The notes under the pieces are model-generated. The model saw only the letters and a program-made list of their open reading frames with translations. It made no database searches and was not told the origin of the DNA. A DNA stretch of 30,336 bases from a candidate division FCPU426 bacterium (lineage in GTDB: Bacteria > Oederibacteriota > Muellerivitia > Muellerivitales > Muellerivitaceae), in NCBI GenBank assembly GCA_963771075.1, contig CAVYSE010000012.1:1-30336 (forward strand), in the 5' to 3' direction. Every line of letters starts with the position of its first letter. Within the stretch, counting starts at the first letter, position 1. The position numbers and the translations under genes are program-made. This document shows positions 1-28,653 of this stretch, piece by piece.

Positions 1-307
1 TATACCGACGAAAAAGCGCGCCGATTCCGATCCAAAGTGCGCAGTGATTCCGCCGCAAAGTGCGCAGTTATTTGACCAGCTTAGCCGGAAGCGACAAGGG
101 TGTGGGAATGGTGTTGCACACATTTCGGAACATGGTTCCATTCCTATGCTGTTGAGGGAATCTCCTTTCTTTTTTTGATCATACATTCTGATGTGCCTGG
201 TGAGGAAATATTTATTCTTCACCATGCCCCGAAACTCAACTCCATCTCCGATCACCCAAAAGAAGGGCCGTTACGTGCATAAAATATTTCTCTCCCCATG
301 ACAAAAA

Positions 308-1046: not shown

Positions 1047-1056
1047 ATAGTCTCCT

Positions 1057-2606
1057 TTAGTTTTGAGTTTGGTAATACTGCGCGCCTCGGACAAACTCAT
1101 GTTCCAAGGCGGGTAATACCGGCTGCTCTTCTACCAATGGCTTTTGATCCAATCCCGATTGGAGAATGGCATGGATCTGACGCAACTTGGGATCAGCCAG
1201 TTTCGAAACTCTCCGACAAGCCGCTTCCAGGCGATCGGGCCCATAGGTTTTTCCCAAGCGCATGATCCCCAAACAGGGCCTAAACCCCTGTTGAGGATGC
1301 ACATGGTTGGACAATATCTTTTCAACTACCGCCTTCGTGGCTTCCCCTGATTGGGCGGCCCATTGGGCCAATCTCACGGGCGTCCATTCGGCATATTCCC
1401 TGTGGTTTTGAGGCATATGTTCCACCAGCGTGGTGTAGCCGTAATCGACGAAGGATCGAACGTGGCTGGCCACCCTCTGGCCTTTGTGGAAAATCTCCAC
1501 CACCGCGCTTGTGACCCTCGCTTCCAACTGCTGGTGTGCCAGTTGATAGGGCGCGCTGTAGTAGTGTTTTTTCAGCTCAACGTGGTAGTCAATGTTCACA
1601 CGCACCTTTTTCCATTCAGCAAACTCGTAAGGGTATTGGGGAAGGGGCTTTAATGCTGGTTTTTCAAGGGTTTCAAACTGTTGGAGACGGCTTCCCGGCA
1701 GTTTTTGGAAAGGCTTTTCGTTGTAGTCCTTCAGGCGTTCCCAGAGGGCCTCATTGAGTTCATGCAGGGAGAAAAAGGTACGGTTTCGCAAAGCCGCCAG
1801 AATCCATCTTTCCGCCACCTGGACCCCCGATTCCACCTTGGCCTTATCCCGGGGTTTGAGGGGTCGGGCTGGAAGAATCGCCGCTTGGTAATGCCGAGCC
1901 ATTTCCTGATAGGTAGCGTTCAGGGTGGGTTCGTAGCGGTGGGCCAACACGACTCCACTTTTGAGATTATCTGGAATTAACAGTTCACTGGTTCCGCCAA
2001 AAAATTCAAATGCCCTGACATGGGAAGCGATCCAATTAGGCAACTCTTGGGTCCAGGTGGCTTCCACGTAGGTGTAGCTGCTGGCCCCCAAGACCGCCAC
2101 GAAGATCTGGGCTTGTTTCACTTCGCCGGTTTTTCGATCCACTACTCCCATCGTCATTCCGGCATAATCCACGAACATCTTTTCCCCGGCCTTGTGAGAC
2201 TGTCTCATCACCACGTCCAAGGTTTTTGCCCAGGCACGGTAAAGATCGCAGAATCGACTGTATCCATATCCTTGGGAATTGGCTTGGCTGTATTCGCTCC
2301 ACAAAAGCATGAGCGTCACGCCTTTTCTCTGAAGTTCCTGGTGAATCCAGGAAAAGTCCGGAAGAGTTCGATTCTCGGTGGGAATACAGGGGGTAGGAGG
2401 AAAAAGCTGTTTTTCCAGCATTTCATCCGTTAAATCTTCCGGCAATGGCCAGTCAGGCGGCAAGCGTTCAACTTCTTGAGATATCCCCTCACTGCGGTGG
2501 GACTTATTCCACAGGATTGGGCTATCGCCCGATGACTTAACTTCTGCTCAAACCTTAACCTCAATACTTCTCGAATTTGACGCATGGGGATTTTTTCCCT
2601 CGGCAT
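1057..2606 (-). pseudogene. istA: IstA DDE transposase with one frameshift near 2465
   Basis: The N-terminal HTH piece (MPREKIPMRQIREVLRL, RBS AGGAGG) lies in one frame. The catalytic part ([23 protein letters not shown]) lies in the 468-aa ORF. Confidence 0.9.
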
Positions 2607-2806
2607 GGGCCCTCCTCCTGATGGATTCAAAAGGAAGCACCATACCAACTAACAGGAATTCACCCTGCGTCGCTTTCACCGAAAAGCTTCTCCCGAAACA
2701 ACGTGCCAAAGTTGCGCACTTTGCGTCGGAATCACTGCGCACATTCGATCGGAATCGGTGCGCACTTTAAATCGGAATCAATGGGCACTTTGACTCGGAA
2801 TACCCA

Positions 2807-3252
2807 GAGCATCTCGTTACAGCTAAACTTGGCCGCCTTGGTTATATTGCCGCACCTTTCGCAGGGAACGTACCCGATTTTGACTTGATGGCCGCAGATG
2901 TGAGGGGGATTCCATCCCTATTCAAGTAAAAGCCATCAATGGGCCCTCCTGGCAGTTCAACGCCAAGAAGTTTCTGGACATCGATTTGAAAAATGGTTTC
3001 CAAACTGTCCGGGGGGTAAAAAAGGTTCCGAACCCCAACCTTTTGTGTATCTTTGTCTTGCTTGGTAAAAACGAACGGGAAGATGAATTTTATCTCTTCG
3101 AGTTCAAGGCCCTCCAAAAGTATTTTTCCCTGGCCTATAAAGGCGGACGCCGGGTCAAAAACCCCGAGTCTTTCCATTGCGCGATTTGGCCAAAGGACTT
3201 GAAGAAGTATCGGGATAATTGGGATTTATTAAAATCTGAATTTCCAAAATAA
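2807..3252 (+). pseudogene. Small PD-(D/E)XK-type nuclease, 5'-truncated by IS21 and with a frameshift in a G-run (~2905)
   Basis: Manual translation from 2807 gives EHLVTAKLGRLGYIAAPFAGNVPDFDLMAADVRG, then (shifted) DSIPIQVKAING, which runs into the 2986-3252 ORF. This gives an E...PD.D...QVK motif. Confidence 0.65.
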
Positions 3253-3259
3253 GGTATAC

Positions 3260-3508
3260 ATGCCCAAACCCTTCCTTAAATCCGACTTCAAAGCGGCCGT
3301 CCGGGATCCCGAATTAGGGAGGATCTACACCGGAATTGAGCATCACGACGCCCTAAAAGCGGCAGAGGCGGACGGTAATCGCCACTTAGGAATGGAAAAT
3401 ACCGGCTTCCAACACAAGGACGGCACCTTCTACACGCGAGCCGAAACCCAGCAGGAATGGGGCTTCAAAACGAGCCATGAACTGCGTGAGGAATTAGGAG
3501 ATTCATAA
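3260..3508 (+). CDS. hypothetical protein (82 aa)
   Basis: ATG with AAGG upstream; tightly packed between its neighbours. Confidence 0.6.
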   Translation: MPKPFLKSDFKAAVRDPELGRIYTGIEHHDALKAAEADGNRHLGMENTGFQHKDGTFYTRAETQQEWGFKTSHELREELGDS

Positions 3509-3514
3509 TAATTT

Positions 3515-4483
3515 ATGAGTAAAATTATTTTGACAATCATGAGCATTCTTTTATTTTTTGTTTTGATCCAATTAATTACTTTTTTTAATATTTTTTCAAG
3601 TAATTATAAAAAATACGGTTTTAAAAAAGCGGTCAAAAGAATTGTTATTCCCGATTTAACTACCGTGGTAAACATTTTTGTCCCAATTATTGTTCTATGG
3701 CTGACCTACCAAGCCAATCAGGAGGGGGCAGGTCTTCTTAAGGAAAATGAAAAGTTTTTGGAAACCGCAAGGAACATCAACGAACAAGCCGAAACCTTTC
3801 AAAAACAATCCCTTGAATCTTTCAAAACATTAAATAATGAAACCAAAAATGTTTTGGATGGGGCCTCCGAAATGAATAAAAGAAGTGTGGATTTTCTTGA
3901 GGCTTCCAAAGGTTCATTAGAAACCTTTAGGAACACGGCCAATGAACTTCAAAAGGTCCTTCAATCAAATATAGACCTTGCAAATAAGCAAATTGAAATA
4001 TTAACCAAAACTTTAAAGCGGGAAGAGGAAATAATGAACCGCACGGCCATAATCGATGTTTATTGCGGTGGCCTAGATTTGAATAAGAGAAAAGATCAAG
4101 AGCCTGTTTCTCTAGACGTTGCTTCTGGGGAAGAATGGACTAAACTCAATTTTGTTATTGGAAATTCAGGATTGATCCCTTTAAAAAACCCCATAATTTT
4201 ATTAACGGTCAATCCTTCGTCAGTTTGCATAAAGGATTCCACTCCCGGCGAAGATTGTAATTTCCGTCAGTTTTCCGGTTTAAATATAATTAGTGCCATT
4301 AATCCAGGGACTTTAAATAAATTTCCTATTGAAGTTAAAATTCCTAATGAGGTTAAAAATATCCAAGTGAACGTTCAGATTAGTGGAGAAGGTCTTCAAG
4401 GACAGGTTGGATCAATGGTTATCTTCAAGGTTAACCGGCTTAAACCTACTCCCACCGTTCCTACGAGTCAGAAAACACCATGA
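3515..4483 (+). CDS. membrane-anchored protein with coiled coil and beta-rich C-terminal domain
   Basis: 322-aa ORF with two N-terminal hydrophobic helices and a heptad-like E/K/N/L middle; markedly AT-rich. Confidence 0.75.
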   Translation: MSKIILTIMSILLFFVLIQLITFFNIFSSNYKKYGFKKAVKRIVIPDLTTVVNIFVPIIVLWLTYQANQEGAGLLKENEKFLETARNINEQAETFQKQSLESFKTLNNETKNVLDGASEMNKRSVDFLEASKGSLETFRNTANELQKVLQSNIDLANKQIEILTKTLKREEEIMNRTAIIDVYCGGLDLNKRKDQEPVSLDVASGEEWTKLNFVIGNSGLIPLKNPIILLTVNPSSVCIKDSTPGEDCNFRQFSGLNIISAINPGTLNKFPIEVKIPNEVKNIQVNVQISGEGLQGQVGSMVIFKVNRLKPTPTVPTSQKTP

Positions 4484-4738
4484 AAGACTTCCCCTTCTGG
4501 CGCGGCGCGATCCACAACGCAAAGACGGCTTTCTTCCTGAAATCCGTTGGGGTAGACCTTGCACAGATTCCCAAGGAATCTGCACCGGCAACCTTCGCCC
4601 TCAACTGGAAGTTTCGAGCGGCCAGCCCAATTCCAGGGGCAAACCGAGCTTCTTAACGACGGGGAAAAGAGACTCGCCGAATTCCACAATCCGAAGGGCC
4701 TTTGGCCCTGATAGAATTCGGCACTAAGCTTCGTCGGC

Positions 4739-5140
4739 TTGAGGGCCAACGGCTTGACTGCCGACCAGGTGGCCGCCCTCCGGAAGATTTATTCGAATAA
4801 ATTGAAAGACTTTAAAGAAGTGCCCGTGGCCACCAGCTCCCCCCGCCAGGAGGAAAAGCCCCACCCAGAAACCGAAGAATCCGTCGAAGCCGTTGTTTGT
4901 ACCAAATGTGGCCAGCCGATCACCATCGAGCGTTTGGAGGCCGTGCCAGCCACTAAAAAGTGCGTAAAATGCCAGGAGAAGGCCGAATCCGGGGAGGAAC
5001 AAAGACCCCAGGCGTCTAAATGTAAGCGGTGTGGGTCCGTTATGGTTTGGAGAATGACGAAGAACGTCAGGCCCGCGAAGTATTTCCTTGGTTGCTCCAA
5101 TTACCCAAAGTGCACCTATATTGGGGTTAGTGCTTTTTAA
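4739..5140 (+). CDS. TraR/DksA-type C4 zinc finger fused to a topoisomerase-type C4 zinc ribbon (start uncertain)
   Basis: CTKCGQPITIERLEAVPATKKCVKCQ and CKRCGSVMVWR...FLGCSNYPKC. Confidence 0.75.
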   Translation: MRANGLTADQVAALRKIYSNKLKDFKEVPVATSSPRQEEKPHPETEESVEAVVCTKCGQPITIERLEAVPATKKCVKCQEKAESGEEQRPQASKCKRCGSVMVWRMTKNVRPAKYFLGCSNYPKCTYIGVSAF

Positions 5141-7660: not shown

Positions 7661-7688
7661 ATTTTAGCCACTGGCCCTTGGGTGTCAA
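7661..7688 (-). promoter_or_regulatory. sigma70-type promoter pointing away from rep
   Basis: TTGACA-N16-TAAAAT on the minus strand. Confidence 0.6.
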
Positions 7689-7713
7689 TACCCTTTTAAG
7701 AGCCAGGAGTTGT

Positions 7714-8838
7714 ATGCCGGAGACTTTAAGACCCAAAACCATTGAGTCCGACGACACCCACGCTATAAGTGTCCTTTCCAACCTAGGGTTGCCCTACGTT
7801 TGGATCCCCTATCTCGTAATCGACTTTTACGGCCCTGGGATGGGCCGCGCTGGCTGGCTTTACACCGTTCTTACCCGCCTGGCTGACCACGACACAAAGA
7901 TTGTCGTTAAATACACCGCCGAGGACATTGGGAAGTTATGCGGATGCGACCGAGACACTGTTCACGCCGGGATAAAACGTTTGGAAGCTTTGGGGTTGAT
8001 CAAGAAAATCCCCGGGGACAGGGCTAAAACCAACGAATATTTGCTCATAGAGCCTATTTTCCCGGCTCCTGACCACATCGTAGTTGAATATTTTCCGAAA
8101 GGCTGGAAGCCCTCAAAATCGTCCCTTTTGGCCCTTCAGAAATCGGGCCTTCAATCGAAATATACCCACATACCACAGGTAGTAGGTGAAAATGGGTCGA
8201 GCGGAAATTTTCCGCACGAGGATTCCGAGCCGTATATTTCCCCGAATGAGCCGAATAATTCCGCACGATCAAGCGGAAATTCAGGCCTACCGAGCCGAGA
8301 AAATAGCGTTATGAGCGGAAAAAACCAGCACCTTATAAACAAACAATCTTTAAAAGAAACAAACGAACAGGAAGAAGAGTTTGTCCGTTCCCTTTTTAAA
8401 ATATTTATAACCAAAAGCCCCAACACCGTTTTTGAAAGGTTTGAGGATCTTTGGTTCAAGACCTTTAACCTTTGTGAGGATAACCTAGCCCTGGCACAGG
8501 ATAGGTTTAAAAAAGGCGTTTTTGTCGTGGAGCAGTCCAAAATCGTCAAGGACCCGGAAGGATTGCTTTGGAAGGCCATCGAAAAGGGTTGGTCACCCAG
8601 GGCTACCCCCGAGACACCAACTCCACCAGGCGACGAGCAAAAGCGAATCGAGGACAAATACGACGAGGAATTAAAAGCACAGAGGAAGTCGGCAACGGTC
8701 GAGGTAATTTTGGATTCTTTGGATTTTTTCAAGAAGCACGATAAGAAAAACGACCCCCTGGATACCGTGAAAAAACTTTACGAGGGGAACCCGCACCTGA
8801 ACGAGGCGATTAAGCGTTTCACTGAAAGGGGCAAATAG
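7714..8838 (+). CDS. replication initiator-like protein with N-terminal winged helix-turn-helix
   Basis: RBS AGGAG; AEDIGKLCGCDRDTVHAGIKRLEALGLIKK...TNEY wHTH; low-complexity linker with internal repeats; KDPEGLLWKAIEKGW C-terminal motif; directly upstream of parAB. Confidence 0.78.
   Translation: MPETLRPKTIESDDTHAISVLSNLGLPYVWIPYLVIDFYGPGMGRAGWLYTVLTRLADHDTKIVVKYTAEDIGKLCGCDRDTVHAGIKRLEALGLIKKIPGDRAKTNEYLLIEPIFPAPDHIVVEYFPKGWKPSKSSLLALQKSGLQSKYTHIPQVVGENGSSGNFPHEDSEPYISPNEPNNSARSSGNSGLPSRENSVMSGKNQHLINKQSLKETNEQEEEFVRSLFKIFITKSPNTVFERFEDLWFKTFNLCEDNLALAQDRFKKGVFVVEQSKIVKDPEGLLWKAIEKGWSPRATPETPTPPGDEQKRIEDKYDEELKAQRKSATVEVILDSLDFFKKHDKKNDPLDTVKKLYEGNPHLNEAIKRFTERGK
8199..8331 (+). repeat. 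iteron-like degenerate repeats inside rep (candidate oriV)
   Basis: RAGC(G/C)G followed by an A/T-rich run starts at 8199, 8227, 8248, 8271, 8292 and 8313 (mostly 21-23 bp spacing), then A-rich DNA. Confidence 0.55.
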
Positions 8839-9918
8839 ATGGCCTATAAGATTTCGATTTACAACAAAAAGGGCGGCGTAGGGAAGACGACGATAGCCGT
8901 CAACCTGGCAGCCCTAATCGCCGCCAAAACAAACACCTCTAAAAGGCCCGTCAAACTCAATGGCCGGGTCATCGGGCCGGGCGATCCCTTTTACCGTGTT
9001 CTTTTGATCGACGCGGACCAGCAGGAAAACACGTCCGATTATTTAGGAATGGGTTCTAATTTCCGGGACGACGCCGACAAGGACCGCCATCTAGGGACCG
9101 TCTTAATGGGCGGTTCGATCCAGGAGGCGGTTATCCCCTTCACATCGAGGGATTATTTAAGGGCGGACGCCACAGGCCCGGATGTTCTTTCCGACGAACA
9201 GTGGACCGGGTTTGACGACAACGGCCAGGAAGTCCTACAGAAACGAAAATTCAGGTTCAGGGTCATCAAGAACTTCCACATTGTCCCGGCTCATGCCAAC
9301 CTGGAGAAGGATAAGCCGAGCCACAACGGGAATTATTCCAAGGTGACGAAGGCTTTGGATAAAGCGGGCTTGGAAGAACTCACCCTTGGGGATTTGATGG
9401 ACGAGGATTTATTCAGGGCAAGTCTTTCACCGACCTTGCTGGCCGAAAAGATATCGGAAGTGGAGGACCAATACGATTACATTTTTATTGATTGCCCTCC
9501 CTCTTGGGACCGTCATTCCAAAATGTCGATTCTCGCTTGTGACCAGATCATCATCCCTTTGAAGCCGGGAGAATTCGAGCGGCTTGGAGTCATCCGGGTC
9601 ATGGACCAGCTCGGGGACTTGCAGGCGCTTTACGGCAAAAAACCGGACCTGATTTTCGCCATCATGAACATGATGCGGGGAAATGTTAAGAAGCACACGG
9701 CCTACCACATCAAGAATTTCCGGGAGCTGGGGCGGTTGGTGGCCATGACGGGCATTCCCTTAACGGAGGAAGTGAACAACTCCCAGGGGGACATGGTTCC
9801 TTTTGCCTTTGCCCCCAAGAAGTACCCGGTCATGGTGAAGATTTTCAACAACGTTTTCCGTGAAATCCGGAAAAGATTCTCAGAGCTAGAAACCAAAAAG
9901 GAGGCCGTCCGTGGTTAA
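8839..9918 (+). CDS. parA: ParA/Soj-family ATPase with insertions
   Basis: KKGGVGKTT, VLLIDADQQ and YDYIFIDCPP. Confidence 0.93.
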   Translation: MAYKISIYNKKGGVGKTTIAVNLAALIAAKTNTSKRPVKLNGRVIGPGDPFYRVLLIDADQQENTSDYLGMGSNFRDDADKDRHLGTVLMGGSIQEAVIPFTSRDYLRADATGPDVLSDEQWTGFDDNGQEVLQKRKFRFRVIKNFHIVPAHANLEKDKPSHNGNYSKVTKALDKAGLEELTLGDLMDEDLFRASLSPTLLAEKISEVEDQYDYIFIDCPPSWDRHSKMSILACDQIIIPLKPGEFERLGVIRVMDQLGDLQALYGKKPDLIFAIMNMMRGNVKKHTAYHIKNFRELGRLVAMTGIPLTEEVNNSQGDMVPFAFAPKKYPVMVKIFNNVFREIRKRFSELETKKEAVRG

Positions 9919-10966
9919 GCCTATTTCCTTAAACACGCTGTCCAGCCAAAAACTAACCGGGCTTTTCAAGGACCCGGTCCAGGGGGATCCCCCCAAGGAA
10001 GTCAAAGGCGGCTTTACCCCCGCCGAACTCAAGGCGAGCTTCAAATCGGACGTGGTTTATTCGATCCCGGTCAACGAGGAATGGTTCAACCTGGAAAACC
10101 GGAGACTTGCGACCAGGCGGGCCATCGACCCGGAGGCCGTTCAAAGCATGGGCGAATCCATCAAGACCCACGGCCAGGAGCAGCCGGTCAAATGCCGGTG
10201 GGATGAAACGAACAGGCTACAAATCATCCTTGGGGAAACCCGGACGCACGCTTGCAAGCTCATCGGGAAAGAGGTTCTTGTCCTCATCACGGACGCGGAC
10301 GAGCGGACTTGCAAGGCTTGGGCCCTTTCCGAAAACCTTCAACGCAACGACATGAAGGGGTATGACCAGGCGCTCAAAATGTACGAGCTTCAAAAAGAGA
10401 ATTTTTCAGTGGACGAGATTTCAATTATCGCCAACAAAAAGAAGGCCTTGATTTACCAAACTTTCAAAATTTTTGATTACCCGAAAATCACGGAGGCTTT
10501 GGAGGCGGGGAAGATCACGATTTCAGACGCGAGGCTTTTAGCTTCGACCACTTCCTCCAAGTCACTCGAAGAAGGGCTTCAAGTGAAAGCTATCGAGGCC
10601 CTTTCGGCTGGGACGTTGAAGGTTTCCGACCTTGATTATTTCGCCGACAAAAAGGGAGATATCCCGTTGGCGACCGCACCAGCCGCGCCGGGCCAACCAG
10701 GCGCACCAACAGATCCGGCGTCGAAGTCTGATGATTCGAGCAAACCCAAGACCAAGAGCCACACCGCCAAGGATGACGGAGCTTACTTCAAGAAATTCAA
10801 CGATGGGAAAATCGTGTTCAAGGCAACCGCCGTGCCCGGGAAGACACAGATGGCGGAACTAAAGAAGATGAAACAGGCCGTTGCCGGCTTCTCGGCCGCA
10901 TTGGAAAAAGTTATCACCGTTGCTTCAACCGCGGACAAAGGTAAGAAAAAAGGGAAGAAGGGCTGA
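9911..10966 (+). CDS. parB: ParB/RepB/Spo0J-family partition protein
   Basis: SIKTHGQEQPV, ILGETRTHA (GxxRxxA), ALSENLQRNDM and a following HTH; overlaps the parA stop. Confidence 0.9.
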   Translation: MVKPISLNTLSSQKLTGLFKDPVQGDPPKEVKGGFTPAELKASFKSDVVYSIPVNEEWFNLENRRLATRRAIDPEAVQSMGESIKTHGQEQPVKCRWDETNRLQIILGETRTHACKLIGKEVLVLITDADERTCKAWALSENLQRNDMKGYDQALKMYELQKENFSVDEISIIANKKKALIYQTFKIFDYPKITEALEAGKITISDARLLASTTSSKSLEEGLQVKAIEALSAGTLKVSDLDYFADKKGDIPLATAPAAPGQPGAPTDPASKSDDSSKPKTKSHTAKDDGAYFKKFNDGKIVFKATAVPGKTQMAELKKMKQAVAGFSAALEKVITVASTADKGKKKGKKG

Positions 10967-10991: not shown

Positions 10992-12878
10992 ATGCTTTCA
11001 AACTTTTATATAAAAATTCTTTGGTTCTTTGGAATCTTTTCGCTCGTCAACTACTTGCTGGAACTTTTCGGGCTGGTTGCGCCCGGGGTTAGCTGGGTGG
11101 ACGTTCTGGCCGTAGCGGCGAATCTTTATTGTGCTTTCCGGCTTGCGAAGGATAAGAAACTTTCCGTTTTGGAGCGCCTGGCCGCTTTGGCACCATGGGT
11201 TGTCTTCACAGAGCATTTTTTCGGTTTGCTCGGAAATAATATAATAACTGTTTTTGTAACCGTCCTGGGCGTCGTGGCCACCACCGTAGTTTTATTCATG
11301 GTTCTTGGAAAGGTTGAGAAGAAGAAGACCGTGACCGCGCCTGTTGACGGCGAAAAAGGGAACTATCCGATTATCCTGGACGAAGAACAGGATTTTTTCA
11401 TTTCCACCAAACAAGTTTTCGAACACGTCCAGGTGATAGGGAAGTCAGGAAGCGGAAAATCCGCCAGCTATTTTTTAAACGCTAAGTTTCAGGCTATCCA
11501 CCAGGGCAAAGGTTGCTTCTCATACGACGCCAAGAGCGAGGAAATTCATATCCTGGCCTATTACGCGCATGAAGCGGGTCGGATTACTGATTTTGTACCC
11601 TTCGATTTGCGTTGCCCGGAGCGTAGCGACAAGGTCAATCCTTTGGCATGGTTCACACCGGAAGGCAAACCCGACTCCCAGGTTGTTTCAAATATTGCCC
11701 AGCAAATTCTTTATTTCGAAAATAAGTCGAATGTGAGCTTTTTCCCCGACACCGGAAAAATGTTCATTCAGAATCTTACCGGACTTCTTCATTACGAATA
11801 CCCGATCATCACTTTTGCGGACTACTACCACGTCGTCACATCTGAAATGGAAAACCTGGATTCAATAAACGCCTTGTGTGAGCTGCACCCTAACAGCACG
11901 GAGGCAAATTATTTTAAGGGCCTTTGGTTGGAAACATCTTCTTCTGAAAGGCGTCAAGCTCTTTCCGGACTTATAAATCTTATAGTGCCATTCGTGCAAG
12001 GACCGTGGGCACCTTTGATAAACACCAAGACGCCCACTTTTCTTATCTCCGACCTCATTAATTCAAACAGGATATTTCATTTTGGGGCGGCGTCTTCCAT
12101 TTACCAATCGGATTATCGACGCTTGGCCGCCTGTTTCTTGATGGGGATAATGATCGAGGTAGGTAAGAGGGCGGCCAAGTTGGAGAAAACCCCTTATGAC
12201 CTATTTATTGACGAGTTCGCCTCTATCGCCTATGAGAAATTCGCAGATACCGTTGGAACGGTAAGGTCAAAGGGGATAGGTATTCATCTAGGTCATCAAT
12301 CCATGGGCGACCTTGATAAAGTCGGCCCGGCCTTTAAGAGAGCGGTTTGCGACAACACGACCACGAAAATTTATTTCCGGGTCCTCTCAAAGGAAACGGC
12401 CAGGGAATGCGCGGACTCCATAGGGACCGAGATCGTGGACCCATACATGGTGAAATCGGTAAAGACAAACGCTGGCCTCTTTGGTGGTTACCAGGAGGCG
12501 GGGGCCACCATTAAAGAAAACGACCGGGCCTACAAAGTCCACCCGGATTTAATAATGGATTTCGTCAAAGGGCAGGCCGCAATAAAAGTGTCTTATGAAA
12601 AGGGTGTGAAGCACGGAATCATCCAATTCAAACTTGCGCCGGAACCGCCGTCATCATTCGATTTTACGGAATATGTGAAAATCAGGAATTACCATAAAGG
12701 CCCTGTTGAGAAAAATTTACCATTCAAAAAGCCCTTGGCCGTGGCGAAGGTGGACCCCTCGCCTGGCACGGGGAAGCAGATGTTCAAAAAGGACGCCATT
12801 TTCGACAAGGTGGACGCCATGAAGAAGGAAATGATCGAGCACCGCAGACCTAAGAAGGTCGAGGACGGATCGAATTGA
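10992..12878 (+). CDS. type IV coupling protein (TraD/TraG/VirD4 family)
   Basis: N-terminal TM helices, HVQVIGKSGSGKS Walker A, LFIDEF Walker B, RSKGIGIHLGHQSMGDL and NTTTKIYFR. Confidence 0.9.
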   Translation: MLSNFYIKILWFFGIFSLVNYLLELFGLVAPGVSWVDVLAVAANLYCAFRLAKDKKLSVLERLAALAPWVVFTEHFFGLLGNNIITVFVTVLGVVATTVVLFMVLGKVEKKKTVTAPVDGEKGNYPIILDEEQDFFISTKQVFEHVQVIGKSGSGKSASYFLNAKFQAIHQGKGCFSYDAKSEEIHILAYYAHEAGRITDFVPFDLRCPERSDKVNPLAWFTPEGKPDSQVVSNIAQQILYFENKSNVSFFPDTGKMFIQNLTGLLHYEYPIITFADYYHVVTSEMENLDSINALCELHPNSTEANYFKGLWLETSSSERRQALSGLINLIVPFVQGPWAPLINTKTPTFLISDLINSNRIFHFGAASSIYQSDYRRLAACFLMGIMIEVGKRAAKLEKTPYDLFIDEFASIAYEKFADTVGTVRSKGIGIHLGHQSMGDLDKVGPAFKRAVCDNTTTKIYFRVLSKETARECADSIGTEIVDPYMVKSVKTNAGLFGGYQEAGATIKENDRAYKVHPDLIMDFVKGQAAIKVSYEKGVKHGIIQFKLAPEPPSSFDFTEYVKIRNYHKGPVEKNLPFKKPLAVAKVDPSPGTGKQMFKKDAIFDKVDAMKKEMIEHRRPKKVEDGSN

Positions 12879-13675
12879 ATTCCCTTCGCGGCGAGCATTA
12901 CAAGATGCTGGCCTATATCCACAGCAACCGAACCATTACCATCGAGCTTTTCAAAGAGAAATTTTTCCCCGGCAAGACCTACCAAAGGGCCTGGCAACTC
13001 ATCGGCCTTTTAAAGCGTAAAAACTACCTTTTTTCCAAGCATGAGAACAAGTTCAAACCGGCTGTCTTTGGGCTGACCCAGGAGGCTTTGTCCGAAATGG
13101 TGTCAAAAGGATTTCTCTTGGCCAAGAGGGTAAGGCCCGTAAGGATTTATTTCGGCCATGAGGCCCACCACGAGGCCGTTACCAGGTTAAGGATCAAGAT
13201 AGAGGGCGACCCGGCATTTTCAGACGTGTTTTGGCTTTCAGACTTCGAGATCAAGCAAGGGATGAGCAAAGAGGCCAAATGGAAATTCCGGGAGCTGGAA
13301 ACCGCCGAGGAGAGGCTTGAGTTCATAAAGACCTGGAAGAAGATAAAGTACAAGCGCGACCCGGACGGATACTTTGACGCGCTGGTTGGTAACGATGAAG
13401 TGGAGTCCTACGTCCTTGAATACGAGCACCAGGAATATTCCAGGACCACAATCCTTGGGATGATCAACGGGCTTGAGGATTCTTTCCGGGGAGCGGGGAA
13501 GTTGGTCGTTTGCAAAACCCCGGAAAGGGAAGACGGGTTTAGGAAGATCCTCGTTCAGACCATGGATTCGATCAAAGGCCGGAGATTCGACTACGGCGAA
13601 TGGATGACGTCCAGCATCGAAAAAGCCACCACCCAACCCTTCAAAACCGCATTTAAAACGTTAAATAAAGACTAA
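12875..13675 (+). CDS. replication-relaxation-family-like putative relaxase (wHTH + PD-(D/E)XK-like)
   Basis: N-terminal wHTH, HEAHH...WLSD...RDPDGYF...VLEYE; start overlaps the T4CP stop, the usual context for this family. Confidence 0.65.
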   Translation: MNSLRGEHYKMLAYIHSNRTITIELFKEKFFPGKTYQRAWQLIGLLKRKNYLFSKHENKFKPAVFGLTQEALSEMVSKGFLLAKRVRPVRIYFGHEAHHEAVTRLRIKIEGDPAFSDVFWLSDFEIKQGMSKEAKWKFRELETAEERLEFIKTWKKIKYKRDPDGYFDALVGNDEVESYVLEYEHQEYSRTTILGMINGLEDSFRGAGKLVVCKTPEREDGFRKILVQTMDSIKGRRFDYGEWMTSSIEKATTQPFKTAFKTLNKD

Positions 13676-13712
13676 AGTCTATTAAATAGACACTTTCCCT
13701 TTTGTTGATATC

Positions 13713-13878
13713 GTTTAAACACTTTTAAGTCGTAAAAACATTACAGGCATTGATCCAAACGATTCCTCGCGCTCCCGACCCCGCTCTTACCGCATCACAT
13801 AATACGTGATGGGTTAGCAAGAGCGGGGTCGGGAGCGCGAGTAATGGATCAATGTAATGTTTTTAAAAGTGTTTAAAC
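13713..13878. repeat. long imperfect inverted repeat (rod hairpin 1)
   Basis: 23-bp perfect core 13766-13788/13819-13841, extended out to GTTTAAACACTTTTAA/TTAAAAGTGTTTAAAC. Confidence 0.92.
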
Positions 13879-13886
13879 AGTTGGAG

Positions 13887-14018
13887 AGAAAAAAACAGCA
13901 GGAAAAAAGCTAGAAAACAGGCCGGAAAAAGTCGGTGAACAAAAGAAGGTTCACCGCCTTTTATAGCCCGGCCAAAGCGGTTTTCTAGCGTTGCGCTTTT
14001 TTCCTGCTGTTTTTTTCT
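13887..14018. repeat. long imperfect inverted repeat (rod hairpin 2)
   Basis: 24-bp perfect outer stem 13887-13910/13995-14018, plus inner stems CTAGAAAAC, GGCCGG and CGGTGAAC. Confidence 0.92.
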
Positions 14019-14019
14019 A

Positions 14020-14320
14020 AAGGTACAGGGCCGCGCGAGTGGCTGGCCCTGCCAAGGCACCGGGCCGCGCGGGAGGCTGGCCCGGCAAAGAGGCACGGCC
14101 CGCTTATGAGGGCGGGCCGCTAGGCATGGCCCCTCGGATATCGGCAGGCGAACCGGGGCCACCAAGGCACAGTTGGCCCAAAGGCAAAGTTCGCCAATGG
14201 GCCAACTGGAAGGCAAGCGGATCAAAAGGCGATCCGCATTAACAGGCGAAAGGCTTATTTATTCATTTCGCCAAAAGGCGTGGCGAAAAGGGGGGGCCGG
14301 GCGTAAGCCCGGCCAAGGTG
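14020..14320. other. tandem array of about eight short GC-rich hairpins with AGGC motifs in linkers and loops
   Basis: Stems such as CAGGGCC/GGCCCTG, CCGGGCC/GGCCCGG, CGGCCCGC/GCGGGCCG, TGGCCCC/GGGGCCA, CAGTTGGCCCA/TGGGCCAACTG, GCGGATC/GATCCGC, TTTCGCCA/TGGCGAAA and GGCCGGGC/GCCCGGCC. Confidence 0.8.
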
Positions 14321-14497
14321 TGAACGTCAAAGGATTCAAACCAGGAGGAAGGAAACCTTCGGTTTCCTTTAGAGGCTTTTTAAAGTCTATTAAATAGACT
14401 TTCACCAATTGGAGTTTTTTGGATAACCGGGATTATCCCGGTAAATTTGTGAGGAAATTTCAGGTTTTAATTTTTTGGGGTTGGTTTTGCTTTTACC

Positions 14498-14525
14498 ATT
14501 TCATATAAACATGGTTATATGAAAT
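14498..14525. other. dif/pdif-like tyrosine-recombinase site
   Basis: ATTTCATATAA-ACATGG-TTATATGAAAT, an 11-6-11 inverted repeat. The right arm matches the XerD arm TTATGTTAAAT at 9/11. Confidence 0.6.
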
Positions 14526-14626
14526 ACTTGACAAGAAGTATACCCGGTATACTTTTCCTTACGGATTCTTTCAAGAAAACTCGGTATAAAAATCGTTATA
14601 CCGAAAGAACGCGACAACGAGTCTAT

Positions 14627-14821
14627 TCAATAGACTTTCAGCTTGGTCATTTCAAGCTTATTCAGGAGCTTTGCGAGCTTATCAAGGGTCTTTAGGAATT
14701 TCTTTACTTCTTTCTTCCGCATGAGGGCTTTCACGACTTTGGGCTTCACTTTATTCCGCACGAGGAATTTCACGAGTTGCGGGGTTTCCTCTTTTATTGC
14801 TTTGGCGGCTCTGGGTTTCAT
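14627..14821 (-). CDS. possible small lysine-rich helical protein
   Basis: MKPRAAK...KLKVY; the only unstructured, protein-like stretch in the non-coding block; no clear RBS. Confidence 0.35.
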   Translation of the reverse strand: MKPRAAKAIKEETPQLVKFLVRNKVKPKVVKALMRKKEVKKFLKTLDKLAKLLNKLEMTKLKVY

Positions 14822-15733
14822 TCGCTTCTGTTTTCGATCCGAGTAATTTTTAGGATTACACAAAATATCATTCCGCATCATAGATTTTAAGACATTGGTT
14901 TAAGGGGGGAAGGGGAAGGGAACAGGAGCACTTCCCTTCCCTGGGCCTTCCCCCTGGGTTGCACTTCCCTTTTGGAAAACCGCCAAAAGGGTGATTGCAA
15001 CCGCACCCCTTTCCCCGGGGGCGACTGCCCCGCGATCCCCTGCCCAAAAGGGAGAACCCCCTTTTGAATTTCCCTTTTTGGGGGAAAGGAAAACAAACGA
15101 GAAGAAGTTTGTTTTCCGTGGGCTTTCCCCCGGGAGACTTCCCTTTTGAAGATCGCAAAAGAGAAGACTCCCTCCCCTTTCCGGTGAGATCAGTTCCCCA
15201 CTTCCCTTTCGTTCATTCCCCTTCCCCTGACCTTTTGGGGACCCCGCCAAGCAGTTAAACCGACTAGCCTGTCCAAAAGTATTTTATCCTCCCGGGGGAA
15301 GGTGTTTTTGGAGTCTATCGGTTTAACAGATTGGCCCTCCCACAAAGGGGCCTTCCCTCCCGGTCCACAAGAACGGCGGACCCGGAACGTAAGCCACCAG
15401 GAGGAAGGGGTCGTTAAGTGCCTCACGGAAGATCCTGAAAATGAAAATTTCCGCGTAACAAAAAAAATACCGCGTCGGTTTCCATTTTCAGGATTGCGGC
15501 CAGAAGGAAAGGCCGCAGGTCGGTTCCCTTCCCTGCCGTTCGGGTGGCGTGAGGTAAAAACCCTTTTTCTGAATTTGTCGTTTGAGGTAGGTATTTTTCC
15601 TTTTCCGGGCATTTCTGTTAGGTCGAGAAAACATTTCAAAATTTCGGCCTTTAAAAGTGAAATCGTCTTTTTTTGGTTTTTCCAGGGTCGGGTTATCTAA
15701 AAAGTCTATTAAATAGACTTTTCTAGTCTCATA

Positions 15734-16098
15734 GCCCGGGTGGTGGACCCCCGGACCCCCCAGGGGGAGGGACGAACCCCCCCTTCCCTTTATCCCCACC
15801 CAAGCCCGGGGGAAAATGACCCCCGGTGCCCCTCAGGCGCAAGTCAACGTGGAAGAAATCCTTTTTCCGGGCGGCTTCGCCGTCCGGGCCGGGGCCTCCG
15901 CCCCTAAACCCCGCCCCTGGCCGGGGCGAATTCTCGCCCTTTCGGCCAACACAGCCGGGCCGGGATTTGCCCGGATGATGCTGACACCTAGACGCACTCC
16001 CCCGGAACAAAGAGTTTCTGGAACCAACAGCCCACACCTTATCGCTCCGAGAACCGCCCCCTAAGTCTTTTAGGGGGGGCGGTCCCCGGAGGCCGCTC
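15734..16098. repeat. ~365-bp structured direct repeat, copy 1
   Basis: Aligns along its whole length with 16915-17278; long identical blocks such as CAACGTGGAAGAAATCCTTTTTCCGGGCGGCTTCGCCGTCCGGGCCGGGGCCTCCGCCCCTAAACCCCG. Confidence 0.95.
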
Positions 16099-16197: not shown

Positions 16198-16470
16198 ATG
16201 AATGAAATTATATGGGACGTGGAAGCGAGAAAGAATTACGACTTTTTGATGTCAGACCGTAAGAACGGATTGACGAAGTTTCAAAAAGACCTTTTGGACC
16301 AGCGGATTGACGCTTTAAGGTGGTGGCCACCGAAAAGGTGGTTCGACTTAAGGAATCAAAAGGATGGGACGGTCACTTTCCAATTGGAAAATGACCAGAT
16401 GGCGGAAATCCAGGGGGCTTTTGTAGATGGTGTGGTTCACATCTACTTTTTCGACATAGAGAAAGGATAA
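16198..16470 (+). CDS. hypothetical protein, possibly divergent RelE/ParE fold
   Basis: RBS AGGAG; IIWDVEARKNYDFL...IDALRWWP followed by beta-strands. An alternative start lies at 16192. Confidence 0.65.
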   Translation: MNEIIWDVEARKNYDFLMSDRKNGLTKFQKDLLDQRIDALRWWPPKRWFDLRNQKDGTVTFQLENDQMAEIQGAFVDGVVHIYFFDIEKG

Positions 16471-16473
16471 AAA

Positions 16474-16794
16474 ATGGCGAACACATTTACCTACAGGCCG
16501 AAAAAATACAGTGTTGACCAATTAAGGGGAATCGCCAGGAAGAAGGGAACCAACTTAAACCGCTTAATTGAGTTTGCGCTTATCGAGAAAATCCACCAGG
16601 ACGAAATCGGGAAGAGAGGGGGGGACGTGGATGCTTTGACGGAAGATTTAAAACGTGTCGTGGTGGAACACATGGGGGTCAAACTCCTCAAGCCCAACCA
16701 AAGAACCCATGAGCGGATTTTGAAAAAGATGAGGGAGACGAATCCCAAGGATATGATTTCCGACCGGTTGGTAAGGCCCCACCGCTACAAATAA
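16474..16794 (+). CDS. ribbon-helix-helix-like DNA-binding protein (candidate antitoxin)
   Basis: TFTYRP...LRGIARKKGTNLNRLIEFAL; 3 nt after the upstream gene; hairpin at 16806-16860 follows. Confidence 0.7.
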   Translation: MANTFTYRPKKYSVDQLRGIARKKGTNLNRLIEFALIEKIHQDEIGKRGGDVDALTEDLKRVVVEHMGVKLLKPNQRTHERILKKMRETNPKDMISDRLVRPHRYK

Positions 16795-16914
16795 TTTCGC
16801 GCAGGTAGGAAACCTCGCCGTCCCCGGGCGGAAGTCTTCCCGGGGCCGTGTAGGTTTCCTCTAAAGACATACCTAGAAGGGAAGGGGGAAACCCCTTCCC
16901 TTCACCTTTTCCTG

Positions 16915-17278
16915 GCCCGGGTGAAGATCCCCCGGACCCCCCAGGGGGAGGGACGAAAAACCCCCTCCCCTTTATCCCCACCCTAGCCCGGGGGAAGTAA
17001 CCCCCGGAGCCCCCACAGCGCACGACAACGTGGAAGAAATCCTTTTTCCGGGCGGCTTCGCCGTCCGGGCCGGGGCCTCCGCCCCTAAACCCCGTCCCTG
17101 GCCGGGCCTCCTCCGTCGGCTATCCGGCCAGCACAGATGGGACGGGCTTTGCCCGGATGATGCTGACACCTAGACGCACTCCCCCGGAACAAAGAATTTC
17201 TGGAACCAACAGCGCCCACCTTTTCGCTCCGTGTACCGCCCCCAAGTCTTTTGGGGGGGCGGTCCCCGGAGGCCGCTC
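16915..17278. repeat. ~365-bp structured direct repeat, copy 2
   Basis: See copy 1; differences cluster in loops. Confidence 0.95.
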
Positions 17279-17310
17279 CCCTCCAACAAATAAATCAAGC
17301 GGAGGGTGAC

Positions 17311-17442
17311 ATGAACGAATTCATGACGAAGTTTATCGAAACGAAATTGATTCTTGAGGAGGCGATAAAGCATCCCGTTCCAGAAGCCGAAATTGACAGG
17401 GCTTTGGAAATGGTTTTGGTGGAAGGGAGGGAATGGTCATGA
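17311..17442 (+). CDS. 43-aa acidic hypothetical protein
   Basis: RBS GGAGG, ATG at 17311, ATGA overlap with radC. Confidence 0.6.
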   Translation: MNEFMTKFIETKLILEEAIKHPVPEAEIDRALEMVLVEGREWS

Positions 17443-17927
17443 ACAGGAAACCCAAACAACTCGAAATGACTTTAGACGTGATGTTCAAAATACCCCCGAC
17501 CACTATTCCGGTTTCATGGGCAGAAGCCCGAGCCGACTACAAGAGGGGACCCGCTTTATCCGGCCCCGGAGACGCAGCCGATTATTTCCGCAAATGGATA
17601 GGCGGGAAGAAGGTCGAGATTTTCTTGACCATGTACGTTGACCACCGCAACCACGTTTTGGACGTAATCGCCGGAGGAGAGGGAACCGTTGACCATACCG
17701 CCGTCTACCCTAGGGAAGTCCTCAAGAAGGCTTTGGAACTAGACGCTTCTGGAATCATCTTGAGCCACGTCCACCCCGGAGGAAGCCTTGAAGCCTCAGA
17801 GGGTGACCGCCAGCTCACACGCCAGATTGTCACCGCTTGCCGTGCGCTTGGAATCACCGTCCATGACCACGTTATCGTGACCCATGAGGGCCACTTTTCT
17901 TTCCGACAAGCCGGGCTTTTGGCTTAA
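17439..17927 (+). CDS. radC: short RadC-like JAB/MPN-domain protein
   Basis: E.F...D..N, GTVDHTAVYPREVLKKAL, HVHPGG..ASEGD..LT and LGITVHDHVIV. Confidence 0.92.
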   Translation: MNRKPKQLEMTLDVMFKIPPTTIPVSWAEARADYKRGPALSGPGDAADYFRKWIGGKKVEIFLTMYVDHRNHVLDVIAGGEGTVDHTAVYPREVLKKALELDASGIILSHVHPGGSLEASEGDRQLTRQIVTACRALGITVHDHVIVTHEGHFSFRQAGLLA

Positions 17928-17955
17928 CAAGGAATTCAAAATTTACTAGAAGCGG

Positions 17956-18034
17956 AGCCCTGGCCACCAGGCCGGGGCTTTCAGCTTTTGAGGGAAATCA
18001 AAAAAGCGGGGGCTTTGCCCCCGCTCCCCTTTTT
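17956..18034 (+). terminator. tandem terminator-like hairpins after radC
   Basis: AGCCCTGGCC/GGCCGGGGCT-TT and AGCGGGGGC/GCCCCCGCT...TTTTT. Confidence 0.55.
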
Positions 18035-18185
18035 ATCGCGCCGATTTTGGCTTTGCCCTTATAAATCGGCGCTCATTTAAGAAAATATTGCATCTCGCTC
18101 TTAATCGATCAGGCGTAAAATTGTCGGACCAAAAGGGAAAAGGTCGTCCACGATGGGGACCCATCGTGAACAAAGGAGAATGTAT

Positions 18186-23608: not shown

Positions 23609-24036
23609 AGATTAAAACCTGCAGCAAAACCTCAACCAGAAGCACTTTTTTTCACCGCCAAGACCGCCAAGTTCGCCAAGAAAGAAAAAATTATTCGGAA
23701 GAATGCACTTGGCATAGCCATAACGACCTACCCTCTCCCCTTGAGGGAGGGGGCAGTGTGAGGGGTGCATGTCCAGCGGAATTCCCCCTCATCCCATCCT
23801 TCTCCCTCCAGGGGAGAAAGAGAAAGCAACAAAAGCCAAGTCATTCTTGGCGAACTTGGCAGTAATAGCCGTCTTTGCTAAAGCAAATGTTTGGAAATCT
23901 TTAAACCCCAGAATGCTTTTGTCTTTCTTGTGCCGATTCTCCATAAAAGATTAATAAGGAAATCGGTACTATACCGACCTCTTTTAGTTTTTTATTGAAG
24001 GTCGGCATGGCGCACTTGGCGTTCTTGGCGGTGAAA
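22884..24036. repeat. dispersed CCGCCAAG/CTTGGCGG short tandem palindromic repeats
   Basis: Forward units at 22884-22912 and 23650-23680; inverted units at 23846-23863 and 24006-24036. Confidence 0.8.
23731..23820. repeat. CCCTCTCCC...GGGAG(A/G)GGG-type miniature palindromic repeat pair
   Basis: Two opposed units; a related pair lies at 24992-25083. Confidence 0.75.
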
Positions 24037-24960: not shown

Positions 24961-24991
24961 GTTTCTATAAATATTGTTTTTTGGATTTTTC

Positions 24992-25083
24992 TCCTTCTCC
25001 CTCGAGGGGAGAAGGTCGGGATGAGGGTGAATAATCAAGAAATCGACACCCCTCACCCTGCCATCTCCCCCAAGGGGCGAGGG
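24992..25083. repeat. CCTTCTCCC...GGGAGAAGG-type miniature palindromic repeat pair
   Basis: Same family as 23731-23820. Confidence 0.75.
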
Positions 25084-25239
25084 TTTTGGATACATATGAA
25101 GCGGCTTCTAGGTATAAAAAAACACTTTCAGCATTCGAACAAGACCCCAAATACCGCTAAATCCAAACAAAGGGTGTGATATATTTTCACCATTGATTAG
25201 GTTTTTCGGTTTTGAACATCTCGATTAAACGGGTCATCC

Positions 25240-26925: not shown

Positions 26926-28653
26926 ATGAATAAAAAGATCTTAAAATCCATCGAGAACTGGTGGCAAACCGCATGGCGCTACGCGGCGACGGGCGCCCTT
27001 TTGGTCACGATCCCGGGGTTATATATCGGCAAGGTTTGGCCCTGGCACAGCATCCTGCCGTTCCGGTTTTGGCTGGGTACCGCCGTTCTTGGGATAGGGT
27101 CCCTACTCATCCTGAGAGAACTAAAACCATGGCGATCTCCCTTCCCCAAGACTGCAGGGTCCGTCCGGCCCTGGATAAGGGGCCTTTCCATCCTGTCTTT
27201 CCTCCTTTTCTTCATCGCCGGTTACATCCTCACGGGCCATATCTGGTGGCACGCCGGTAAGATCGCCCTGGCTTACGCCAAAAGCGATGTTCTTTCCGCC
27301 GGGCTCCAATTAGGCGTTCCGGAAAACGCCCCTCCCTTGCCGGATGAAAAAAACGCGGCCCGTGACCTTACCCAGGCCATGAACGCGCCCTCCATGGGTA
27401 GTTTGGAGGGGCAAACCGCCGATTCTAAAAAACCTTTTTACGGGAAGGAAACGGAGTTCGAGTTCTTGTTGGCTTTTAACGAGGCTGCGAAAGCCGGTTT
27501 GGCGACCAAGAAAGAAAAAACCTACGCCCGCAAATTGTTGAAAGAACACCAGGATATCCTGGGCTTCGCCGACAAGGCCTTTGAGAAGAAAACCGTGGAT
27601 TGGGGATTGGATTGGAGCAAACCCTTCCGGGAAATTCAATTCCCTCCCATTGGGGCTAATTTCATGAATATGGCCCGTTTGGAAAGATGCCGGGCTTTCC
27701 TGGCGGCGTTCGACGGGAACGGTTCGGAAACGGTCAAAAGCATCCAGACAGCGTTCTATTTAGGGGACGCGGCCTGGCAAGAACACACATTGATCGGGGT
27801 GATGGTCGATGCCGGCATCGTTCGGATGATGGCGGATACGGTCTGTGATGTTCTTCCCATGTTGAAGTCGAAGAATTTTTCATCTAAAGAGCTCATCCCC
27901 TTCATGCAGCCGAAAAAGCTTTCGGAAGGTTTATCGAACGTCACGCAATACGAATTTTTAGGTTCCAACCGCTTTCTGGAACCCATGGATTGGTTGAAAT
28001 TCGCCGATTTTTTAACAAAGAGCCCTTTCCCTGGACATACCGAGGCGGAAAAAATATTCCCGAATTATTTTTTTGGCGTCATTTACTGGCCGTTTTTGTT
28101 GTTCGATCTGGCTTCCCGGTATGAGGCCTACATCCCCGAATTAAAAGCCATTCAATCAATCGGTTCCCAACCCGGCCAGCGCCCGGACTGGGGATCAATG
28201 CATGAGGGTTTTTACCGTAATGGTTGGATCTTGGGTTTGAGTTCTTTCCCGGAAAACGGCCAGTTAGTTGAAAAGGTCAGGGAGGCCATGACTGTCTGTA
28301 ATCTGGCGAGGTTGGAAATCGAGGTCAGAACGTTCGGTCAAAAAAACAAACGCTGGCCGGCATCGACCAGCGATGTTGAAAAAATGGCCTCGGGCGACTG
28401 GGATCCCTTATCCCCGAAGCAAGACCTCATCCCGGATGTCCTAGCGACGGGCGCCTTCGTGCACGCTTCCCCGAGCCCGGAGGGGAACAAGGTCACCCTG
28501 GCCCACAAGGGCGAGGCGCCCACCACCGGCGATTCAGGCTGGCTATACGACAGCAGTACGGGCTCGGTCTACGTGAACAGCACCGTCAAGGACTCGAAAA
28601 GCATTTCATCCGATATACGCCAAATTAAACTTCAACCGGAATTTCCCAGATGA
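26926..28653 (+). CDS. membrane-anchored helical hypothetical protein with pseudopilin-like C-terminal motif; 3' end supplied by IS1380
   Basis: Three N-terminal TM segments; LEIEVRTFGQKNKRWP...DP motif; stop codon lies inside the IS terminal repeat. Confidence 0.75.
   Translation: MNKKILKSIENWWQTAWRYAATGALLVTIPGLYIGKVWPWHSILPFRFWLGTAVLGIGSLLILRELKPWRSPFPKTAGSVRPWIRGLSILSFLLFFIAGYILTGHIWWHAGKIALAYAKSDVLSAGLQLGVPENAPPLPDEKNAARDLTQAMNAPSMGSLEGQTADSKKPFYGKETEFEFLLAFNEAAKAGLATKKEKTYARKLLKEHQDILGFADKAFEKKTVDWGLDWSKPFREIQFPPIGANFMNMARLERCRAFLAAFDGNGSETVKSIQTAFYLGDAAWQEHTLIGVMVDAGIVRMMADTVCDVLPMLKSKNFSSKELIPFMQPKKLSEGLSNVTQYEFLGSNRFLEPMDWLKFADFLTKSPFPGHTEAEKIFPNYFFGVIYWPFLLFDLASRYEAYIPELKAIQSIGSQPGQRPDWGSMHEGFYRNGWILGLSSFPENGQLVEKVREAMTVCNLARLEIEVRTFGQKNKRWPASTSDVEKMASGDWDPLSPKQDLIPDVLATGAFVHASPSPEGNKVTLAHKGEAPTTGDSGWLYDSSTGSVYVNSTVKDSKSISSDIRQIKLQPEFPR

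Follow-up and report, generated by a model that had tools for sequence, protein, structure and literature searches.

A hairpin array rich in AGGC behind a candidate MOBC-type transfer origin of an uncultured peat bacterium

Introduction

MOBC transfer origins are poorly known. Francia and Clewell reportedly described, in 2002, a large inverted repeat at oriT2 of pAD1. TraX of pAD1 is the experimentally studied MOBC prototype; the pages of PMC12857230 that deal with it give MOBC relaxases such as TraX a winged helix plus PD-(D/E)xK architecture, place the winged helix of TraX at the N-terminus and state that the protein binds five direct repeats 70-120 bp from the nick. For CloDF13, also of the MOBC type, the nick site 5'-GGGTG/GTCGGG-3' is given in the relevant part of PMC5935869, citing Nunez and de la Cruz 2001. 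According to the part of bioRxiv 2024.01.30.577996 on oriT position, oriT is mostly located upstream of the relaxase gene, ~2 kb away for MOBC. One section of PMC4595007 describes sso1 of ICEBs1 as a region of stem-loops located downstream of oriT and counts recruitment of the host primase among three known priming routes.

The locus described here lies in the window, by which we mean the whole stretch of 30,336 nt that was analysed. As in pAD1 oriT2/TraX (PMC12857230, part on this system), a coupling protein is combined with a winged-helix/PD-(D/E)xK relaxase (predicted in our case), and short direct repeats follow the nick region at a distance. Unlike pAD1 oriT2, the oriT candidate of the window is downstream of the relaxase gene, the element also has rep and parAB, and its repeats, which outnumber those of pAD1 and alternate with perfect hairpins, lie at a distance of 190-550 nt. 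CloDF13 oriT/MobC, as covered in PMC5935869, resembles the window in a nick word matching at 9/11 positions and in a coupling protein gene before the relaxase gene; the window differs in its hairpin array, none being mentioned in that paper's account of CloDF13. ICEBs1 sso1, pBAA1-type sso and ssi/primosome sites are comparable in having stem-loops near oriT and a relaxase without a primase, but the sections of PMC4595007 and PMC5714925 on these sites describe three stem-loops, whereas the window has nine hairpins and a repeated unpaired word.

The first-pass annotation of the window compared the array with RNA sponges. CsrB and RsmZ carry repeated GGA motifs in hairpin loops and act as a sponge for CsrA/RsmA. 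The window array is similar in that a short motif is repeated on the plus strand between hairpins over ~350 nt; it differs in that the motif is AGGC and not GGA, in that the host family has no CsrA, and in being tied to a mobilisation module. No literature on this element family, nor on AAGGC together with oriT and a relaxase, was found in the limited collection searched. The locus family offers a predicted oriT with 39 non-redundant natural variants, together with a defined array of hairpins and a recurring word. This makes the position and strand of the nick, the direction of transfer and the priming of the second strand accessible to in vitro tests.

Host, element and gene order

The window is the entire contig C12 of a 96.7% complete genome. 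Four metagenome runs, one of a bog, two of soil and one of peat, contained near-identical DNA. The host is an uncultured peat bacterium, and the array is part of a mobile element with the following features.

7678..8838, plus strand: helix-turn-helix protein, putative replication initiator (weak Pfam HTH matches; role suggested by position)
8839..9918, plus strand: ParA
9911..10966, plus strand: ParB
10992..12878, plus strand: type IV coupling protein (TraD/VirD4-like)
12875..13675, plus strand: 266-aa MOBC-like relaxase (predicted N-terminal winged helix and PD-(D/E)xK-type domain)
13674..13694: 21-bp palindrome copy 1, directly after the relaxase stop (likely parS)
13713..13878: IR1, long imperfect inverted repeat with core hairpin 13766-13841 (candidate oriT)
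13823..13833, plus strand: CloDF13-like nick word, 9/11 match, with a mirror copy at 13774-13784 on the minus strand
13887..14018: IR2, a second long inverted repeat whose base pairs perfectly over 24 bp; the array begins at its foot
14019..14381, plus strand: hairpin array with nine Watson-Crick stems and 13 AGGC (15 AGGY), chiefly in linkers and loops
14026-14051, 14060-14085, 14096-14119, 14127-14161, 14170-14208: array stems 1-5
14217-14237, 14266-14288, 14295-14314, 14349-14369: array stems 6-9
14382..14402: 21-bp palindrome copy 2, which closes the array
14618-14638 and 15701-15721: further copies of the 21-bp palindrome

The order is thus rep-parA-parB-coupling protein-relaxase, then IR1, IR2 and the array, with all genes co-oriented with the plus strand. 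The four copies of the 21-bp palindrome are exclusive to contig C12 in the genome, and copies 1 and 2 bracket IR1, IR2 and the array. Contig C8 carries a VirB4/TraG-like ATPase gene and also shares window positions 1-4895 and 16203-18172; C8 and C12 appear to be parts of one conjugative element.

Several elements have a repeated palindrome of their own, namely the window (13674, 14382, 14618, 15701), L039, L040, L044, L045, L047 and L094. L039 and L040 have one palindrome and the ParB recognition helix in common, with Rep only 31% identical; sharing of the palindrome along with the ParB helix and not with Rep suggests parS sites. Pairs of inverted TATAA-N6-TTATA sites were seen at 14498-14525 and 14579-14606 of the window, in L039, L040, L042-L045 and L047, and at G000:C6 114166. 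We take them to be laid out like XerCD dif sites (11-6-11); in some relatives small genes lie between them, as in pdif modules, and the G000:C6 copy may be the chromosomal dif. An IS21-family element with 23-nt terminal repeats occupies the left end of the window (11-2801) and an IS1380-type transposase the right end (28630-30336), each present in several copies in the genome. Two kinds of REP-like inverted repeats lie at 23650-24036 and 24974-25084, one kind having short iterated GCCAAG-type units found also at G000:C23 96078.

A predicted MOBC-type relaxase

The coupling protein gene directly precedes the relaxase gene, as in MOBC mobilisation modules. D164, E182 and E184 are invariant across 27 relaxase homologues and fit D-x(6-17)-E-x-E, which we take to be the motif of MOBC relaxases. 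In the structure model of the window relaxase (pLDDT 94.5) the N-terminal winged helix was aligned with MarR at Z 10.2 (rmsd 2.6, 77 aligned) and the C-terminal restriction-endonuclease-like part with SdaI at a borderline Z of 8.4 (rmsd 4.2, 131 aligned). Foldseek against the PDB gave no match to the model at E 0.001 or better. The window relaxase had no match in Pfam, including Replic_Relax PF13814; one of the 27 family members matched PF13814 (E 0.0024), and of 28 distant proteins scanned from the 99 collected by a profile search, 12 matched it, 8 above the cut-off. The model and the motif indicate that the 266-aa protein is likely a MOBC-type relaxase.

The relaxase gave 79 matches in 22 of the 99 genomes of the phylum. 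None was found in scans of the genome-contig and viral-contig collections, and tblastn against the PLSDB plasmids gave no detectable protein similarity.

The candidate oriT

The core of IR1 is a C-rich/G-rich stem with a GCATCA-type apex. Of 74 relaxase loci, 44 have such a core within ~400 nt on their downstream side (43 found by script, one by hand; 39 non-redundant), the 74 being 73 of 74 distinct places (without G014:C7) plus the metagenome locus L047. The script found no IR1-type hairpin behind 30 of the 74; beyond the 44, one further hairpin was recognised by eye and one contig breaks at the hairpin. Across 13 aligned cores only double Watson-Crick swaps vary, which is the behaviour of a DNA inverted repeat. 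AGGC also occurs in bulges of IR1, both in the window and in L047. The left arm of IR2 is an A-rich tract, which in relatives lies 50-130 nt behind the putative oriT hairpin.

The conserved core and the CloDF13-like word suggest that IR1 is the oriT. Contrary to the usual layout, this candidate is downstream of the relaxase gene. The nicked strand is ambiguous because the IR1 stem is symmetric and the CloDF13-like word occurs on both strands.

Two other kinds of locus were observed. In group A (L018, L020, L022, L032, L048, L052, L079, G000:C2 5650-6200 and G000:C18 218400-218700) the DNA behind an oriT-like hairpin is rich in G and poor in C (C ~10%) over ~250 nt instead of carrying a hairpin array. 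Group B consists of small integrative elements that bear an integrase (L023-L030, L054, L061-L076, L084, L085, G000:C27 56400-57200); in 21/24 of its loci an open frame of 110-140 codons runs from the relaxase stop through the hairpin to the excisionase start. Its peptide frame is not conserved, and it is possibly a translational coupling bridge. In the example L064 the order is coupling protein, relaxase, hairpin, excisionase-like ORF and an ORF judged by eye to be tyrosine-integrase-like.

The hairpin array

The array (14019-14381) is non-coding, with stops in all three plus-strand frames. The short-stem array proposed by the first-pass annotation is real, although it has nine Watson-Crick stems and not eight. 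All 13 motif positions given there were confirmed, namely AGG(C/T)A at 14021, 14055, 14091, 14122, 14165 and 14211 and AGGC at 14074, 14146, 14182, 14227, 14244, 14251 and 14276; to these can be added an AGGC at 14373 and an AGGT at 14316. The plus strand of the array has 13 copies of AGGC and the minus strand has none. Not one of 3000 dinucleotide shuffles reached 13 (mean 4.45, maximum 12), and the enrichment stands. AGGC is also the top-ranked 4-mer of the array (z 4.4, dinucleotide shuffles), only one further 300-nt stretch of the 4.4-Mb genome equals its AGGC count, and the folding z-score against shuffles is -6.2.

The motif had been described as unpaired. At least two of the three AGG bases are unpaired in 9 of the 13 copies with DNA parameters and in 6 of 13 with RNA parameters, above the maxima of 6 and 5 in 200 shuffles; the remaining copies do not fit the description. 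It had further been claimed that the stems differ while the motif is conserved. The linker AGGCA is constant among the units while loops and stems diverge, but the stems are related to one another: units 1 and 2 form a 34-nt tandem pair of 82% identity, and units 1-5 have GGCC cores in common.

A second gene-free, hairpin-dense block was noticed at 14900-15700, 68-80% conserved in L047, L044, L040 and L039. No tRNA was found by a scan of the window; a low-threshold scan of relatives, mostly yielding noise, placed tRNA-like sequences behind the array at L094 1835-1907 (minus strand) and L040 11207-11280.

Arrays in related elements and strain variation

Eight non-redundant rep-parA-parB-coupling protein-relaxase elements with sequence behind IR1 were compared. 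L041/L045 was counted as one element, presumed to be linked across a contig break, and L093 was excluded from the counts, its available stretch having rep-parA-parB-coupling protein and no relaxase or hairpin. All eight have 3-9 perfect hairpins at the place of the array, largely unrelated in sequence (segment ends set by eye). The AGGC counts on the plus and minus strands were 13/0 in the window, 7/0 in L047, 3/3 in L044, 2/1 in L094, 1/0 in L039, 1/2 in L042, 0/1 in L040 and 0/1 in L045. Since arrays are present in 8/8 elements and only the window and L047 are rich in AGGC, the hairpin array is a family trait and AGGC richness a lineage trait. A high copy number is confined to 2/8 elements.

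L047, whose relaxase is 79% identical, has units 2-4 and lacks units 1, 5 and 6 as well as the hairpin at 14349-14369, which had been said to close the block and does so in the window; L044 has one unit in common with the window array. The AGGC-rich state was reached partly via unit duplication. A looser word, (A/G)AG-N, picked post hoc from data already inspected, stands in the 8 nt 5' of 22/43 stems, against 4/43 on the minus strand and 126/852 in the genome background; without the window and L047 it precedes 12/28 stems. An exact search of the genome-contig collection with a conserved unit gave two matches in high-GC actinobacteria, which we attribute to chance.

The variants reveal selection on folding in that they spare the stems. 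In strain contigs, 10 of the 12 variant positions listed for 13705-14381 are unpaired, against 32% expected. Five substitutions are listed (at most nine) in the 602 nt of IR1, IR2 and units 1-7, compared with 20 in the next 361 nt. Between the window and L047, 30/309 paired and 25/101 unpaired sites are changed.

A possible single-strand origin

The array is probably a cis-acting DNA part of the transfer origin. The best explanation that we can offer, plausible if short of probable, is that it serves as a single-strand origin for the host primase, with AGGY as the recognised word. The predicted MOBC-type relaxase would nick the candidate oriT IR1, one strand would be unwound for conjugation, the array would fold as ssDNA, and the repeated AGGY sites, left unpaired, would be where the host primase initiates second-strand synthesis. 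We infer the oriT identity of IR1, folding of the ssDNA in vivo, priming, the strand used and AGGY recognition.

A single-strand DNA landing pad or priming array was the secondary option of the first-pass annotation, and the context fits it, the array being placed behind a conserved, relaxase-linked hairpin. A stem-loop cluster near the candidate oriT, the criterion for sso/ssi, is present in 8/8 related elements. The sole Toprim_3 match of the genome is dnaG and no Prim-Pol match was obtained; as the relaxase has no primase domain either, the second strand would need host priming. At the two residues that set specificity the host DnaG carries Ser-Phe, according to an alignment made by eye; this is not one of the pairs characterised in the pertinent part of PMC2978363. 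Against priming at AGGY, AGGC is not conserved, with 13, 7, 3, 2, 1, 1, 0 and 0 copies on the plus strand of the eight arrays. The GC skew of the host contigs is too noisy to show how the motif is oriented relative to replication. The array may also be described as a structured flank of a predicted MOBC-type oriT, and the oriT lists in the supplement of bioRxiv 2024.01.30.577996 may bear on its novelty.

Relaxase binding and folding as alternatives

It is doubtful that the relaxase binds the AGGC copies as repeats of the oriT, in the manner of pAD1 TraX, with the hairpins a separate feature. The window relaxase, too, has a winged helix in its model, and in 24/24 group B loci the hexamers AAAGGC/AAAGTC/AAAGAC/AACGGC are found on the same strand 40-130 nt behind the hairpin (75 on the plus and 4 on the minus strand). 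In 38 other loci AAGGC behind the hairpin amounted to 33 against 15.1 expected. The window copies, however, are 190-550 nt off and irregularly spaced, and the word is shared beside relaxases only ~30% identical whose recognition helices differ, which suggests a host factor rather than relaxase specificity. The hexamer pattern was moreover defined post hoc, and the group B loci are kin. Repeats fall in the pAD1-type 70-120 bp stretch in 24/24 group B loci, but in 21/24 the tract lies within the stop-free frame leading from the relaxase stop toward the excisionase, so the 6-nt period may be a frame-keeping microsatellite, although 7-nt periods and frame switches in the tract show that the peptide is not conserved. 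In the window this distance from the hairpin is taken up by the left arm of IR2. Scanning the whole genome for tracts of the hexamers gave five matches, one at an oriT-like hairpin, and so no general host signal emerged.

Equally unlikely is that only folding matters, by compacting the transferred strand's end or shielding it, and that the many AGGC copies arose incidentally as one linker-plus-stem unit was duplicated in tandem in this lineage. The 82% identity of units 1 and 2, the absence of units 1, 5 and 6 from L047, the single unit shared by L044 and the 0-3 AGGC copies of six of the eight arrays are consistent with this, as is the alteration of one AGGC in strain X1 and one in L047. By contrast, the linker AGGCA stays constant despite diverging loops and stems, L047 has its AGGC 7 to 0 in favour of the plus strand, the IR1 bulges of both elements contain AGGC, and none of the five substitutions listed in 13676-14277 falls in a motif.

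DNA or RNA, and strand

The array likely works as DNA rather than RNA. Rfam searches at gathering and E-value thresholds gave nothing relevant to the array, only sub-threshold unrelated matches. No sigma-70-like promoter precedes the array, and the promoter and terminator scan was at chance level, with 6 terminator-like matches against 6.1 by chance. None of 31 genomes from the host family, 17 of which reach 90% completeness or more, had CsrA; the control search was positive in 3/14. GGA is not enriched in the array (8 observed, 7.6 expected).

Folding of the array is better on the plus than on the minus strand by 4 kcal/mol with DNA and by 9 kcal/mol with RNA parameters. In 1.9 kb from seven elements, internal 1x1 mismatches comprise 8 G-T and 10 A-C, without the G-T preference that DNA inverted repeats would indeed not be expected to show; loop-adjacent pairs, with 10 G-T against 2 A-C, favour the plus strand, and outer pairs number 11 against 14. 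If one strand folds, the plus strand is therefore mildly favoured by loop-adjacent wobble and fold energy. A purine-started AG primer would need the minus strand as template, and the strand signals thus conflict.

That the array acts in cis as RNA, as the tail or leader of a rep-par-mob transcript with (anti)termination of read-through into the cargo, is improbable. The genes are co-oriented with the plus strand, and the plus-strand fold advantage as RNA and the loop-side wobble agree with a transcript. The primary array stems, however, have no G-U pairs, two long stable hairpins come before the array, its last hairpin is absent in L047, and terminator-like matches do not exceed chance. Least probable by our judgement is a trans-acting, CsrB-like small RNA titrating an AGGC-binding protein, the main proposal of the first-pass annotation, which is not supported: its ~360 nt, multivalent layout, strand-specific motif and closing hairpin would suit it, but Rfam, promoter, CsrA and GGA searches speak against it, no candidate binding protein was found, copy number and closing hairpin are not conserved (AGGC-rich in 2/8 elements), and the position is fixed behind an oriT-like hairpin.

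Cargo genes and transfer polarity

Behind the array are repeated GC-rich modules of 370 nt, each preceding small genes.

Window 15729-16098 and 16910-17278: 370-nt modules
G000:C8 77588-79913 and 89441-89805: 370-nt modules
L047 9781-10147, 11084-11451 and 13233-13599: 370-nt modules

The modules fold strongly, better on the minus strand in 7/7 copies, and have no Rfam match; the minus strand is G-rich, however, and favoured anyway. To us the modules recall CUP/ssi/EGeRS upstream repeats. The genes that follow are RadC in the window and DUF2958, RelE-, MazE- and Gp49-like genes in relatives; ArdC follows one of the modules on C8, and on C2 it comes ~2 kb after a hairpin of the IR1 type. RadC, ArdC and toxin-antitoxin type genes are typical establishment genes. 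Against the leading-region rule, they point away from the candidate oriT.

In other MOB types such genes can be read off the first-entering strand, as stated in parts of bioRxiv 2023.02.15.528439 and PMC11541004. The survey results given in PMC11541004 include no leading-region enrichment for MOBC, which was dropped for lack of signal, and a passage of PMC8152469 says that MOBC proteins do not attach to the 5' end. Entry could thus be 5' first for the sense strand, with quick priming needed, or 3' first for the template strand. It is a long shot that MOBC-like elements transfer with reversed polarity, the minus strand entering 3' end first with the array leading; the lack of a covalent 5' adduct on MOBC relaxases would lead to this reading. 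A dozen GCCT template sites would then be offered to AG-started host primers, and the 370-nt modules would have the cargo genes read immediately off the entering strand. The plus-strand fold bias of the array opposes such 3'-first entry. If it were true, the array would serve as a multivalent landing pad for primase and mark a direction of conjugation not yet described, and the absent MOBC leading-region pattern in the genome-wide survey could be explained.

A second mobilisation element, with a frameshifted relaxase gene, was observed on the minus strand at G000:C2 2861-17065. It has 8.5 kb of cargo between the relaxase gene and the hairpin, followed by ArdC and RadC pointing away.
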